Source: Mustelus asterias (lineage: Eukaryota). Taken from it: 64,000 nt of DNA. How positions within the stretch are numbered: position 1 is the stretch's first letter; each line of letters begins with the position of its first letter. Location of the stretch: assembly GCF_964213995.1 (NCBI RefSeq), contig NC_135815.1, positions 17,670,001 through 17,734,000 of the forward strand, read 5' to 3'. A model generated the notes under the pieces. It saw only the letters and a list, made by a program, of their open reading frames with translations, ran no database searches and had not been told where the DNA came from. The position numbers and the translations under genes were made by a program. Shown in pieces: positions 39,790-45,700 of this stretch.

Positions 39790-42700
39790 GTATTTGCTGT
39801 GGAGTAAACCGTCAGAGTGCCGAGTTGTCAGCATCAGCGCTGACAAGTTTGTCTTTCTGTTTCAAGTCAAAATCAAATCCTGATCCACATGGCACTTTTA
39901 AAATACATAACTCCCCGAGTGCCCAATTGCAATCTGCGCGTTAATCTTACTGATTGTATCTACCCATTCTGAATATTAGATAAAAGCAAATTACTGCGGA
40001 TGCTGGAATCTGAAACCAAAAGGGAAAATGCTGGAAAATCTCAGCAGGTCTGGCAGCATCTGTAAGGAGAGAAAAGAGCTGACGTTTCGAGCCCTGATGA
40101 CCCTTTGTCTGAATTTTTCCCCGGGCTGTACTGAAAATGAAGAGAGTTATGTCAAATTTCAATCATGACTTTACCCTTAAAGTTCAGTTTAAGGAGAAAT
40201 TGTCAGTTCTCCCAGTTTTAAAATTTGAAAAAAAAAACTCATTTTCCTGAGCTTGATATAGCTTGAACAGCGCCAGGGATCCGGGTTTGATTCCCAGCTT
40301 CAGTCACTGTCTGTGCAGAGTCTGCACGTTCTCCTATGTCTGCGTGGGTTTCTTCTGAGTGTTCCGGTTTCCTCTCACAGTCTGAAAGACGTGCTGGTTA
40401 GGTGCAGTGGCCGTGCTAAATTCTCCCTCAGGGTACCCGAACAGGTGCTGGAGTGGTGACTGGGGGATTTTCATAGTAACTTAATTGCAATGTTAATGTA
40501 AGCCTACTTGTGACACTAATAAATAAACGTTAAAAAAAACGAACTGAGGATTTTCTAGATTCTTCTTCACATTGGTCACATTGTCAGACTCAGATCCCCC
40601 CAGTAATGTACAGTTAAATTGTTTGATTGGCATAAGTTGTCGCATTGGTGTACCTGGAATACTGCTTCAATGTTCTTTTCCTTTCTTGCAGTATGTGGAA
40701 GGTTATGCGCAACTCAATGGATGAGATCATGCTCCAGAACATCGGAAAGTACAAAAGAAAGCAACCAGGATAGTATGATGTTAAAGCACCTGATTTCAAA
40801 AATAAAGTCAACCGGCCCAATTTCAGTAGCGGAATATATGAGAGAAGTGTTAACCAATCCTGTCACGGTATATAATTCATCATTGACTATTACAATTACT
40901 ACAATTGGCATAGACTTATTTTAGTGCTACTAACTGAGCCACTAAGAATTAATGTTCGCTTCTGAGTTAGAAGGTTGTGGGTTCAAGTCCCACTTCAGGA
41001 CTTGAGCACAAACTTTAGGCTGACACTCCAGTGCAGAACGTGCTGCACTGTTGGAGGTGCAATCATTCAGATGAGACATTAGAGCAAGGATCTTTCTACC
41101 CTTGGAGGTGGATATTAAAGATCCCATGGCACTAATTTAGGGAAGAGTAAGGATATTTATCCCTCAATCAATATCAGTACATTATCTGGTAATTATCAGA
41201 TTGCTGTTTGTGGGATCTTTCTGTGCACAAGTTCACAGCTGTATTTCCTACCTTACAGTAAGAGTTTTAACAACACCAGGTTAAAGTCCAACAGGTTTAT
41301 TTGGTAGCAAACACCGCTGCTCCTTCGTCAGATGGAGTGGAAATGTGCTCTCAAACAGGGCACAGAGACACAAAAATCAAGTTACAGAGTACTGATTAGA
41401 ATGCGAATCCCTACAGCCAGCCAGATCTTAAAGATACAGGCAATGTGGGTGGAGGGAGCATTAAGCACAAGTTAAAGAGATGTGTATTGTCTCCAGACAG
41501 GACAGCCTGCAAGTCCAGGAGGCAAGCTGTGGGGGTTACTGATAATGTGACATAAATCCAACATCCTGGTTTAGGCCGTCCTCATGTGTGCGGAACTTGG
41601 CTATCAGTTTCTGCTCAGCGACTCTGCGCTGTCGTGTGTCGTGAAGGCCACCTTGGAGAACGCTTACCTGAAGATCAGAGGCTGCATGCCCGTGACCGCT
41701 GAAGTGCTCCCCCACAGGAAGAGAACAGTCTTGCCTGGTGATTGTTGAGCGGTGTTCATTTATCCGTTGTCATAACATCTGCATGGTTTCCCCAATGTAC
41801 CATGCCTTGGGACATCCTTTCCTGCAGCGTATCAGGTAGACAACGTTGGCCGAGTTGCAAGAGTAGGTACCGTGTACCTGGTAGATGGTGTTCTCACGTG
41901 AGATGATGGCATCCATGTCGATGATCCGGCATGTCTTGCAGAGGTTGCTGTGGCAGGGTTGTGTGGTGTGGTGGTCATTGTTCTCCTGAAGGCTGGGTAG
42001 TTTGCTGCGGACAATGGTCTGTTTGAGGTTGCGTGGTTGTTTGAAGGCCAGAAGTGGGGGTGTGGGGATGGCCTTGGCGAGATGTTCGTCTTCATCAATG
42101 ACAATCATAAAACCAAGAAATAGTTGACATCTTACCCTTAGAGTGTCACTCGCTAAAGTACCCCTGCCAGGCCCAAGTTCTACGAGTTGAAACGTCTTTG
42201 GTTTACCAGCAGCCATCCACTCACTTACGCACCACACTCCAAGTAGCTTGAGGTGGGAAGAAAAAATACTTTAGATAACTCTTTAATATAACTGATGTAA
42301 TTTAGCTACAGTCCAAAGATGTGCAGGTTTGGTGGATTGGTCAAGCTAAATTACCCCTTAGTGTCCTGTGATCTGTACGTTGGGGGTGGCAAACTTTCCT
42401 TCCTTACAGCAGTGATTACACATTGAAAATACTTAATTGGCAAAAAAATGTTTTGAGATGCCCTGAAGTTGTGAAGGACTTTTCTTTCTTTATCTTCAGC
42501 TATACAATTACTGACCAATCATCTGCTTCAGAATTACTGTATATATCTTTTTTAAAAGCATAATTATGTAAATTAGCAAAGTGTGTGCATTATTAACTGA
42601 GATTATTGATGTAATCTGTTCCAGGGATATTATCAACACAGGGATGTTCTAGGACCACAAGGAGACTTCATTACATCACCTGAAATTAGTCAGATCTTCG

Positions 42701-45700
42701 GAGAAGTAAGCTTATGAGTAACTAGTTATGATTCTGATCATTAGTAGAACAATTTGATTGTAAGAAAGCAATATTTTGAATAATTTTAGAATGTAACCTG
42801 CTTTGGAATGGCTAACACTACATGCACTATTGAAATGGACTGTTATTAATGATATGCATATGATAACAATCACATATTTACTATATCATAGAATTGTAGA
42901 ATCACTACAGTACAGAAGGAGGCCATTCAGCCCATCAAATCTGCACCAACTCTCCAACAGAGGATCTTACCCAGGCCCTATCCCCATGACCCCATGTATT
43001 TAGCCCACTAATTTCCCCACCACCCACCCCCAACGTACAGATCACAGGACACTAAGGGGTAATTTAGCTTGACCAATCCACCAAACCTGCACATCTTTGG
43101 ACTGTAGCTAAATTACATCAGTTATATTAAAGAGTTATCTAAAGTATTTTTTCTTCCCACCTCAAGCTACTTGGAGTGTGGTGCGTAAGTGAGTGGATGG
43201 CTGCTGGTAAACCAAAGACGTTTCAACTCGTAGAACTTGGGCCTGGCAGGGGTACTTTAGCGAGTGACACTCTAAGGGTAAGATGTCAACTATTTCTTGG
43301 TTTTATGAATGCACAAACTAAAATTCCAGAGCATGAATTTGATAATGACTCACCATCTTATCTCCAGTACATATAAAAAAGTAGGTATTAATTTTAGTAA
43401 TTCTTTACACTCCTATGTTTTGTAATTGTGCTAAATATAATTCAGCTTCCTTTAATGATAGTATGGTTAATGGTTTATTTTATAGTACATTTCATAATGA
43501 ATTCAAACCATTGTAATTGAATATTGCAGCTTTGGTGCTCCTTTGTTGCTGGCTTTATCTGGCCTGGCCTCATTGGCTGGGGCCCACGCTGCAGCATTGT
43601 ATGTTTCATTGTAAGTCCACCTTTGTCCTGGGGGGTTACAATTGGCCAGAAACTGAATTGGACTAACCATATAAATACTGTCACTTTAAGAGCAGGTCAG
43701 AGGCAAGGGATCCTGTGTTGGGTAACACCTCCTGACTCCTTAAAACTTTCCACCATTTACAATGCACAAGTCTGGAATGTGATGGAATACTTTCCACTTC
43801 CTTGAATGAGTGTAGCTCCAACAACACTCAAGAAGCTTGCACCATCCTGGACAAAGCAGCCCACTTAATTGGCACCCCACCTACAAACATTCACTTCCTT
43901 CACCACTGAAGCACAGTAGCAGCAATGTGTCCCCTCTACAAGATGCACTGCATTAACTCACTAAAGCTCCTTAGACAGCACCTTCCAAACCCATGATCAC
44001 TACCATAAAGAAGGACAAGGGAAACAGACACATGGGAATACCACCACCTACAAGTTCCCCTCCAAATCACTCACCATCCTGACTTGGATGCTGTCCCTTC
44101 ACTGTCACTGGGTCAAAATCCTGGAACTCTCTCCCTAACAGCACTACATGACAGAGATTGCAACGATTCAAGCAGGCAGCTCACTGCCGCCTTCTCAAGG
44201 GCAATTAGGGATGGACAATAAATGCTGGCCTTGCTAGCGATGCCCACTTCACATGAATGATTTTTTAAAAGTAGAAAATATTTTAATAATATAAGAAAGA
44301 ATGGGGAAAAGATAGTCAGTAGTTTAATTTCAATGCTTTGGAAAATGTGAACCATATATTTTCTGGTGTTTCACATATGTTGCTGAGAACATGGTGCTCA
44401 TTGTTATGGAAGTCACTGTTTCACAGTCACTGAAATCCATGAATTTAGCTAAGCTAAACTGACTTTTATAGATTTGTTTGAAAATTAAATATTGATCCTT
44501 TTTAGTTTAGTTAAATGCAATTTCTCTTAAAGAAAGAGGCCACGATACTCCCATCCCGCTGCGCTAAAGAATTAGTACAGTGGGCCAGGAGAATCCCGCG
44601 GTGGCCGATTCGCAGGGTTTACACGATGTTCGCGCCCCGCTTGCGTCTCCCAGCGCTGGATTTCCTGCAGCGTCTGCTCTGTGCTGGAAATCAGCGGGGA
44701 GACGTACAGACCATTTAAATGGTCATTTCAATATTATTTGAATGTGATTAGCGGACCTGGGACTGAAGTCTTCGGGCCCGCTAGCATCTCCCACCCTGCC
44801 AGAGTATTTCACTCCGGTGGGGATTACACTAGCTCCCCACTTTCTGGGAGCTGGTGGCCCGACCCCTGCTCGAGTGAAGGGGAGGCAATCGGGGTCCCTG
44901 GGCATCTGCCCCCTGGGCATTGGCACTCTGGCAGTGCCAGCCTGGGCCTCCGACACTGCCCGAGGGCAGTACCTAGGAGGTGATCGGTGGGCGAAGGGGG
45001 TCCCGCTGCCACTCTGCAGTCGGGATTGGTGGGGAAGGAGGGAGGCCAGTGATCGGGGCGGGCTGGGGGAGGGGGGGTCAGCCTGCTTGGGGAATGCAAT
45101 TGTCGGGGGGAATCGGTGGGAGGAGGTGGCGTGGCTGGAGATCGGGGTGGGCCGGGAGGAAGTGGGTCGGAGCTCAGCCCAGGAATGGTCGGGGGGCTAG
45201 CAATCGGCCTGTGGGGGAGGGGGGGGGGGAAGAGCTGGCGTTGCAGGGTCGCAGTGCTGGCCAGCAATCGGGAGGCCATCAGTGCAGGGCCATTGCGTAG
45301 GCACCAATCTTGGTACTGACAGATCGGCGCATGCACAGTAGCCCGCTCAGCGAGCTGATTTCAGCCTCTCCAGTGGGAATAGACCCCGCCCCCTAGTTTA
45401 TAGTGATTTTCACGCTGGTGGCCACTGCAGTGCACAGAGTGAGGGAGATTCTTCTCTGAACTCCCACTGAAAAAACAGTGTGAATTACTCCAGTTTTCAC
45501 GTGAATTCAACACTTCAAAGTTTATTGTGGGAGAATTCTGCCCAGGATGTTCAGACATGGGCATTTTCTTTTTTTTAATGCAGCTGGCGAAACCCATCGG
45601 TGTTGCAAAATTGACAAATTACATTGGCATATTAAATCCTATGCCTGTTTTAGGGTAGTTCAACAGATAATGATATTGTGTGAATCTAACTGACACTGCC

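Follow-up and report, generated by a model that had tools for sequence, protein, structure and literature searches.

We analyzed a stretch of 64,000 nt from the shark Mustelus asterias (assembly GCF_964213995.1, contig NC_135815.1, positions 17,670,001 to 17,734,000; hereafter the window, whose own numbering is used below), in which a 5'-truncated Penelope-like element (PLE), joined to an inverted copy of a host exon, lies in intron 2 of NDUFAF7. The gene is on the plus strand, and its exons are numbered from the first coding exon. Translation of coding exons 1 to 5 agreed with the M. asterias NDUFAF7 protein P0078 at 214/214 residues, and the later exons aligned as well (tblastn). Exon 4 matched PF02636 at positions 1-38 (E 8e-12), and the methyltransferase domain begins there; it contains a glycine-rich motif that we take to be the S-adenosylmethionine-binding loop. 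Mice that lose NDUFAF7 die as embryos, and in zebrafish its loss impairs complex I assembly (review PMC9006661). The original prediction for this locus, made from its letters alone, was that the element's reverse transcriptase (RT) had very recently left its own RNA and continued on the nascent NDUFAF7 transcript.

Anatomy of the composite insertion

The inverted copy at 42105-42389 and its source at 43024-43308 are complementary at 285/285 positions with exact limits and a spacer of 634 nt, and the window has no longer inverted repeat. The copy comprises 143 nt of intron 3, exon 4 (111 nt) and 31 nt of intron 4, so that the earlier description of an unspliced piece with acceptor, exon and donor was accurate. 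The source lies 615-899 bp past the right target-site duplication, on the 5' side of the element, and not 1-2 kb away as first stated. The copied stretch starts inside a second SINE (short interspersed element) in intron 3, within a C-rich tract whose G4Hunter magnitude reaches 2.5.

The predicted 15-bp duplication with one mismatch flanks the composite (14/15; chance ~3e-5 after allowing 441 offsets). Both SINE paralogues examined carry a purine at the mismatch position, so the right copy is the changed one. A perfect 8-bp duplication with a 12-nt filler is a possible alternative parse. The insertion was also said to split a single SINE, and this was borne out within the window: a minus-strand paralogue at 38274-37957 matched the left flank as far as 38022 and the right flank starting at 38020, and a second one, from 12647 onward, aligned to both flanks also. 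Judged from these paralogues, the interrupted repeat was one continuous SINE. It is presumably of the Deu type. Neither three short motifs from the window nor the name SacSINE1 was found in two of the three supplements of PMC4824008.

The minus-strand orientation and the truncation of the element were called correctly, while its limits shifted from 41256-42104 to a start at 41255 and an end at 42102 or 42103. Its first 4 nt (ACAG) are common to element and target. The left junction, 41250-41264, is a short palindrome in which the target end is the reverse complement of the element's first bases (a hairpin). At the other end, the reported junction between element and copy exists, but base 42104 fits neither the source nor the element, whose relatives have a His codon there. 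The 2 nt before it are shared with the source flank, as expected by chance in 7-16% of junctions. A 5-nt filler between copy and right duplication had gone unmentioned. A 7-mer at 42438-42444, 29 nt beyond the break, matches this filler plus 3 nt of the copy (0.013 expected by chance per 100 nt); this match was found post hoc and is one of 4 partial matches of at least 7 nt. The filler itself has 14 exact occurrences in 40200-44400, with a longest match of 8 nt at 41009, none of them decisive. It was also considered as a remnant of an inverted pseudo-long terminal repeat (pseudo-LTR), but matches neither end seen in the PLE copy at 21.3 kb. Together, the duplication, the continuous SINE paralogue and the direct junction support, as had been proposed, a single insertion event with co-inserted local sequence.

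Table 1. Features of the composite insertion, its surroundings and a second insertion of the same family (positions in the window)
Feature	Position	Strand	Basis or remark
NDUFAF7 coding exon 2	40692-40867	+	P0078 alignment, tblastn
Interrupted SINE, left part	40962-41258	+	nhmmer 12647-12953, E 2.5e-17; 38274-38022, E 7.4e-11
Target-site duplication, left copy, likely ancestral base at mismatch	41244-41258	+	14/15 match
5'-truncated PLE, 3' end of open reading frame and pseudo-LTR down to internal start	41255 to 42102/42103	-	without poly(A)
15-bp deletion, GAAA half of putative hammerhead core lost	41314-41315	-	alignment with four other pseudo-LTR pieces in the window
In-frame stop in endonuclease region	41770-41772	-	Arg in 9/9 close relatives covering the site
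Element/copy junction, 2 nt (42102-42103) common to source flank, then one odd base	42102-42104	+	
Inverted copy of 43024-43308	42105-42389	-	285/285 identity
Inverted exon 4 with acceptor and donor	42136-42246	-	coordinates from copy
Filler, 5 nt, between copy and right duplication	42390-42394	+	
Target-site duplication, right copy, derived base at mismatch	42395-42409	+	14/15 match; SINE paralogues
Interrupted SINE, right part	42410-42465	+	paralogue 38020-37957, E 0.0027; alignments
NDUFAF7 exon 3, 81 nt, in loop between arms	42625-42705	+	P0078 alignment, fold
Second SINE, unrelated to the interrupted one, intron 3	42886-43105	+	nhmmer matches 10693-10895, 38608-38429
Source of copy: intron 3 end, exon 4, 31 nt of intron 4	43024-43308	+	arm match
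NDUFAF7 exon 4, 111 nt	43167-43277	+	P0078 alignment
Control: second insertion of the PLE family, head-to-head pseudo-LTR pieces (21292-21550)	21280-21562	.	inside a long interspersed element (LINE)

The open reading frame (ORF) part of the element (42102-41536, minus strand) encodes 188 residues of the GIY-YIG endonuclease region, with 90% identity to P0196 of M. asterias and 81% to P0198 of Heptranchias. None of three profile searches matched the fragment itself to a Pfam family, and the GIY-YIG call rests on a relative, P0062, which is 85% identical over residues 63-187 and matches PF01541 (E 2.3e-5). The RT part is truncated away in this copy and is known from relatives only: P0198 (81%) and P0217 (60%) match RVT_1 upstream of the region shared with the fragment. 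P0198 had no match in the PDB at E 0.01. On these alignments, the element would be a Penelope-like element of the endonuclease-positive type with a C-terminal GIY-YIG domain, and its anatomy fits that of published PLEs.

Three other PLE copies in the window start within 2 nt of the same point, two of them being the arms of the insertion at 21.3 kb, and 4/5 pseudo-LTR pieces in the window align from a common start, two with an extra tail of ~32 nt. The 21.3 kb insertion has a perfect 12-bp duplication, and its empty site is visible in a LINE copy at 54146-54157. Its arms (107 nt, 13-nt spacer) differ at 4/107 positions and have two start sites ~32 nt apart. A pattern that we assume to describe the hammerhead core is present at 21360-21384, 21426-21450 and 53270-53294, with four further matches in the window. 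Rfam gave no hammerhead match, with 0 window matches at the gathering score and only hairpin-driven, sub-threshold ones by E-value; fold z-scores of four short pseudo-LTR pieces (-0.14 to -0.65) were not significant. The pieces at 53202-53533 and 45875-45995 are older and come from a related subfamily, with 74-88% identity to the copy at 41 kb; duplications around them were not found, the longest shared word being 0 nt at 45.9 kb and 7 nt at 53.2 kb.

The inverted exon 4, 10 intron codons and the PLE endonuclease form one open frame (41770-42270, minus strand, 166 amino acids) that ends at the element's stop. As a gene, this fused frame was rejected: 0/74 protein matches (lengths 81-259, best coverage 80%) cover both parts, and only P0074 matches the exon part. 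The in-frame join is unremarkable. Pieces of the PLE ORF occur in five annotated shark proteins (P0199, P0206, P0210, P0212 and P0213; NOXP20-like, CYP2C31-like, septin 5a, XRCC5 and PPP1R12A-like), by either exonization or annotation error.

The locus shares with Penelope/Poseidon PLEs (PMC11167929, PMC8557442, PMC3846280) the C-terminal GIY-YIG, an AC-rich internal start, 5' truncation, a short duplication and, in sister copies, a pseudo-LTR with a putative hammerhead motif. The 21.3 kb copy has the usual inverted 5' piece of such elements, a pseudo-LTR, whereas the 41 kb insertion has host sequence instead. Host genes captured by rotifer PLEs have pseudo-LTRs on both sides and had been carried to new loci, in contrast to the local copy beside one pseudo-LTR seen here.

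DNA or RNA as the template of the copied exon

Primed at 41258 and running right, the complementary DNA (cDNA) corresponds to the plus strand; the 285 nt that follow it are complementary to that strand, read from 43308 to 43024. Templates that would give this are the sense precursor mRNA (pre-mRNA), plus-strand DNA or, with synthesis from the other end, a resected minus strand folded back on itself. As the original prediction stated, the captured piece is in NDUFAF7 sense within the element's sense direction. DNA copying gives the same orientation; since all template routes yield the same sequence, orientation is not evidence for RNA.

We hold it to be probable, without great confidence, that one PLE insertion occurred and that its 5' junction was finished by DNA repair copying nearby DNA. 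This grading, like the lower one given below to an RNA template, is a judgement and not a computed value. The order of steps, the direction of synthesis and the DNA template that we infer are as follows. The PLE endonuclease would have cut both strands of NDUFAF7 intron 2 at points ~15 nt apart. Reverse transcription would have been primed by the left 3' end at the family's internal start site, yielding ~845 nt of cDNA, and the opposite target end would have been resected. The free cDNA end could then have paired through ~2 nt with the plus strand near 43310 and been extended to 43024, the template being either a plus strand that resection had released or exposed, or a duplex invaded on the same or the sister chromatid. 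Joining of the extended cDNA back to the target overhang with a short filler would have left the duplication.

Several observations are consistent with this scheme. Duplications of similar size occur in the family (12 bp at 21.3 kb), which also extends both ends of its target; an anole PLE in vitro likewise uses an internal AC-rich start and extends both target strands, the steps of 5'-end completion being left unvalidated in that work (PMC11167929). By analogy, a source on the 5' side within 0.9 kb has the side and scale of LINE-1 (L1) cases ascribed to end processing. DNA end processing requires a source on that side and an RNA template does not; an RNA polymerase stalled by the break would presumably hold upstream RNA, not downstream RNA. 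Position 43024 is inside a G-rich tract of the minus strand; tracts of this kind make up 1-4% of the gene. This tract and the filler 7-mer past the break are post hoc hints that lean weakly to DNA.

Synthesis from the cDNA end, a part of the original prediction, is plausible because fold-back from the other end has no priming homology: no 3- to 6-mer of either end was found in 42980-43030, and 1/20 positions match. Fold-back priming from the reciprocal end, at the duplication-side junction, was thus set aside for want of self-annealing homology.

Published human L1 insertions offer the closest precedents. Fold-back inverted duplications of 52-220 bp in four somatic insertions were ascribed to DNA polymerases, and another insertion, with co-inserted nearby pre-mRNA, to RT strand switching (Nam et al., PMC10191854, Extended Data Fig. 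9g); by this count, local DNA-type cases outnumber the pre-mRNA case 4 to 1. Zumalave et al. (bioRxiv 2024.08.27.596794) reported 22 templated insertions among 3,598, most of them <250 bp and from within 15 bp of the site. Three L1 inversions or inverted duplications and three templated cases are described in PMC11702581, where an inversion of ~0.9 kb, an inverted duplication and pieces from ~0.5-1 kb away (Fig. S9-S10) were attributed to end processing, with fold-back self-annealing homology of 14 and 6 bp in 2/3 examples. Like the present locus, the cases in these three sources (in PMC11702581, Fig. S9C and S10B) consist of a 5'-truncated element followed by a copy from its 5' side, inside the target-site duplication, as a rare by-product of one insertion. 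They differ in that here the element is a PLE in the shark germline, the 285 bp came from 615-899 bp away, self-annealing homology is lacking and what was copied is an entire exon with both its splice sites. L1 thus provides precedents for this type of event and for the pre-mRNA explanation, and the PLE host element and the germline setting are new. Among the titles and abstracts found in searches aimed at PLEs, none described a PLE with a local inverted host copy, a weak negative given that our L1-directed search missed a known paper and that subscription literature was largely missing; the available parts of PMC9977147 contain nothing on PLE-linked local copies.

Several points weigh against the DNA reading. 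A DNA template cannot be proved from any base of the copy, and the L1 attributions are themselves inferences. The source is farther away than that of typical templated L1 pieces, the 2-nt match at the cDNA end is within chance and is followed by a mismatch, and the self-annealing homology expected for fold-back is absent (1/20 positions). Since PLEs move intron-containing sequence (PMC3846280), the prior for RNA is raised. Finally, for a single event of recent date the donor RNA must have been dead beforehand, given differences at 13/186 residues in the PLE against 0/285 in the arms.

The foremost alternative is the one originally called probable, in which the PLE RT came off its own RNA at 42103 and took unspliced NDUFAF7 pre-mRNA as its next template, reading it from 43308 to 43024, before the cDNA was joined to the overhang. 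We regard it as unlikely, though deserving of some weight. The copy is complementary to the transcript and in line with the cDNA, which is necessary for an RNA template but not sufficient, and synthesis from the cDNA end is a better fit than fold-back. One such L1 case has been described (PMC10191854), PLEs are known to retrotranspose intron-containing sequence (PMC3846280), and the source distance exceeds that of most DNA-templated L1 pieces (bioRxiv 2024.08.27.596794). That L1 case involves unspliced sequence of a nearby expressed gene, the mechanism first proposed here, but it is one somatic insertion in an adenoma clone, and nothing in the shark copy singles out RNA over the DNA routes, which yield the same strand. 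The copy contains no splice junction, poly(A), edited base or natural RNA 3' end at 43308, neither of its ends is at a splice site, and 43167-43420 has no poly(A) signal. The same hallmarks would be missing from a copy of nascent RNA, so that their absence lowers the proof and not the possibility. A pre-mRNA switch would further need a polymerase that had transcribed beyond 43308 before the 461-nt intron 3 was spliced out, and the sense strand at 43024 is C-rich, presumably not of the G-rich kind that holds an R-loop. In insertions made by an engineered R2 system in human cells at ribosomal DNA, cDNA 3' ends likewise prime on nearby DNA or another RNA before joining, but there the extra RNA templates are almost always U6 and snap-back DNA copies form a class of their own (PMC11371274). 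Synthesis from the cDNA end, then, is the plausible part of the original mechanism, and the choice of RNA over DNA found no RNA-specific feature to carry it.

PLE 5' junctions genome-wide would show whether host repair or the element's enzyme completes such insertions and whether nascent RNA serves as a germline patch, which one case cannot. The strand-bias test suggested earlier for telling RNA from DNA needs the side of the source as well as the strand.

Age of the insertion

The earlier view that the event is very recent was not upheld. The absence of differences between the arms (0/285) bounds divergence only at 1.05%. At the one measured shark rate, that of the epaulette shark (7e-10 per site per generation; PMC10587355), this corresponds to up to ~7.5 million generations. 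The PLE part looks older than the arms. A lack of visible mismatches had been cited for the recent date, but this part has a stop, a 15-bp deletion and 10 private replacements. Against the majority of 11 close relatives it differs at 13/186 residues, and four M. asterias PLE copies differ from the family majority at 5/186, 13/152, 5/146 and 7/128. The private changes, the stop among them, number 10 after 3 positions shared with other copies and 1 covered by a single relative were dropped; 6 are at CpG and 4 at non-CpG sites, a decay of ~1% at non-CpG and ~15% at CpG sites. The pseudo-LTR points the opposite way, with 0-1 differences from the 21.3 kb copy over ~99 shared positions beside the 15-bp deletion.

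Arms of the same age as the decay of the ORF would be expected to show ~6.8 mismatches, and 0 were observed (conditional P 0.007-0.06; Fisher-combined 0.04-0.22, depending on assumptions). The limits of this test are its basis of 10 events and its use of protein relatives selected for their open frames. The mismatch in age could mean that a dead donor moved recently in trans, that the arms were converted, that the copy came later, or chance.

Conversion would make the insertion one old event whose arms became identical through gene conversion between close inverted repeats, which bears on dating and not on the template. We think this improbable, though almost as worthy of attention as an RNA template. 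It accommodates the element's decay, and mismatches survive just outside the arms (at 42104 and in the duplication). The tighter 21.3 kb hairpin was not homogenized, however, its arms differing at 4/107, although these may stem from two donors. A dead donor moved in trans has a precedent (PMC3846280), and insertion in vitro does not require the hammerhead (PMC11167929).

We give little credence to a combined scenario in which an RT used a dead donor RNA in trans and switched to the nascent transcript, leaving an antisense copy of exon 4 in the germline, the resulting stem alters NDUFAF7 splicing or editing, and such captures recur in shark genomes. If true, its effects could be skipping of exon 4 or of exons 3 and 4, an exon 3 circle or A-to-I (adenosine-to-inosine) recoding, and the captures would be a route to self-antisense exons.

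Slightly less credible still are two separate steps, an older PLE insertion that made the duplication and a later break at its 5' end or close to it that was repaired with the inverted copy. This order accounts for the age mismatch (~6.8 expected against 0 seen in the arms), and the mismatch in the duplication and the 4/107 differences between the arms of the 21.3 kb family copy agree with it. The second break would have to end within 5 nt of the duplication, the filler matches neither end of the inverted pseudo-LTR expected in such an older copy, and the age test has the limits given above.

We consider it very improbable that the inverted copy, or its perfect identity, was made in silico by assembly or polishing: 100% identity beside a decayed element, the trouble that tandem and inverted PLE structures are known to cause in assemblies (PMC8557442) and the lack of outside support from the 0/74 protein matches that join exon and PLE parts would suit such an artifact, but the unique filler, the one-base junction oddity and a duplication around the composite appear unlike fold-back read chimeras, and the only gap in the window (7700-7899) is 33 kb away.

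Predicted consequence for NDUFAF7 and other features of the window

Every unspliced NDUFAF7 transcript is predicted to be able to form a perfect 285-bp stem that buries exon 4. In the predicted fold of 42050-43400 (-720 kcal/mol, a value without a shuffled control of equal length), the full stem forms, exon 3 is looped out and the two splice sites of exon 4 are paired. Removal of intron 2 might come first, but no more than 318 nt separate the exon 3 donor from the start of the second arm. Exon skipping, circle formation and editing are predictions of this model. Skipping of exon 3 (81 nt) or exon 4 (111 nt) keeps the reading frame, so the products would escape decay and would probably be inactive. 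Isoform X1 of M. asterias has both exons and argues that normal splicing is possible, an annotation that may rest on homology or on other individuals. Among 14 NDUFAF7 proteins compared, two annotated isoforms lack exon 3 (white shark, P0088) or exon 4 (sawshark, P0089). The interest of the locus is carried by the age mismatch and by the stem over an essential exon, which makes this shark a natural experiment on whether co-transcriptional splicing is faster than pairing over a long range.

Elsewhere in the window, a gene of the CBF/Mak21 family (PF03914; 19640-39426, minus strand), which we take to be CEBPZ, lies head to head with NDUFAF7 (39717, plus strand), with start codons ~290 bp apart. 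Two young copies of one LINE (20735-23001 and 53605-55594) are 2.9-4.7% apart, the latter with an open RT frame of 597 amino acids (RVT_1). The assembly gap at 7700-7899 is exactly 200 N and adjoins a 13-bp tandem repeat, and a 34-bp minisatellite at 9443-10410 has 28.7 copies with 87% matches.

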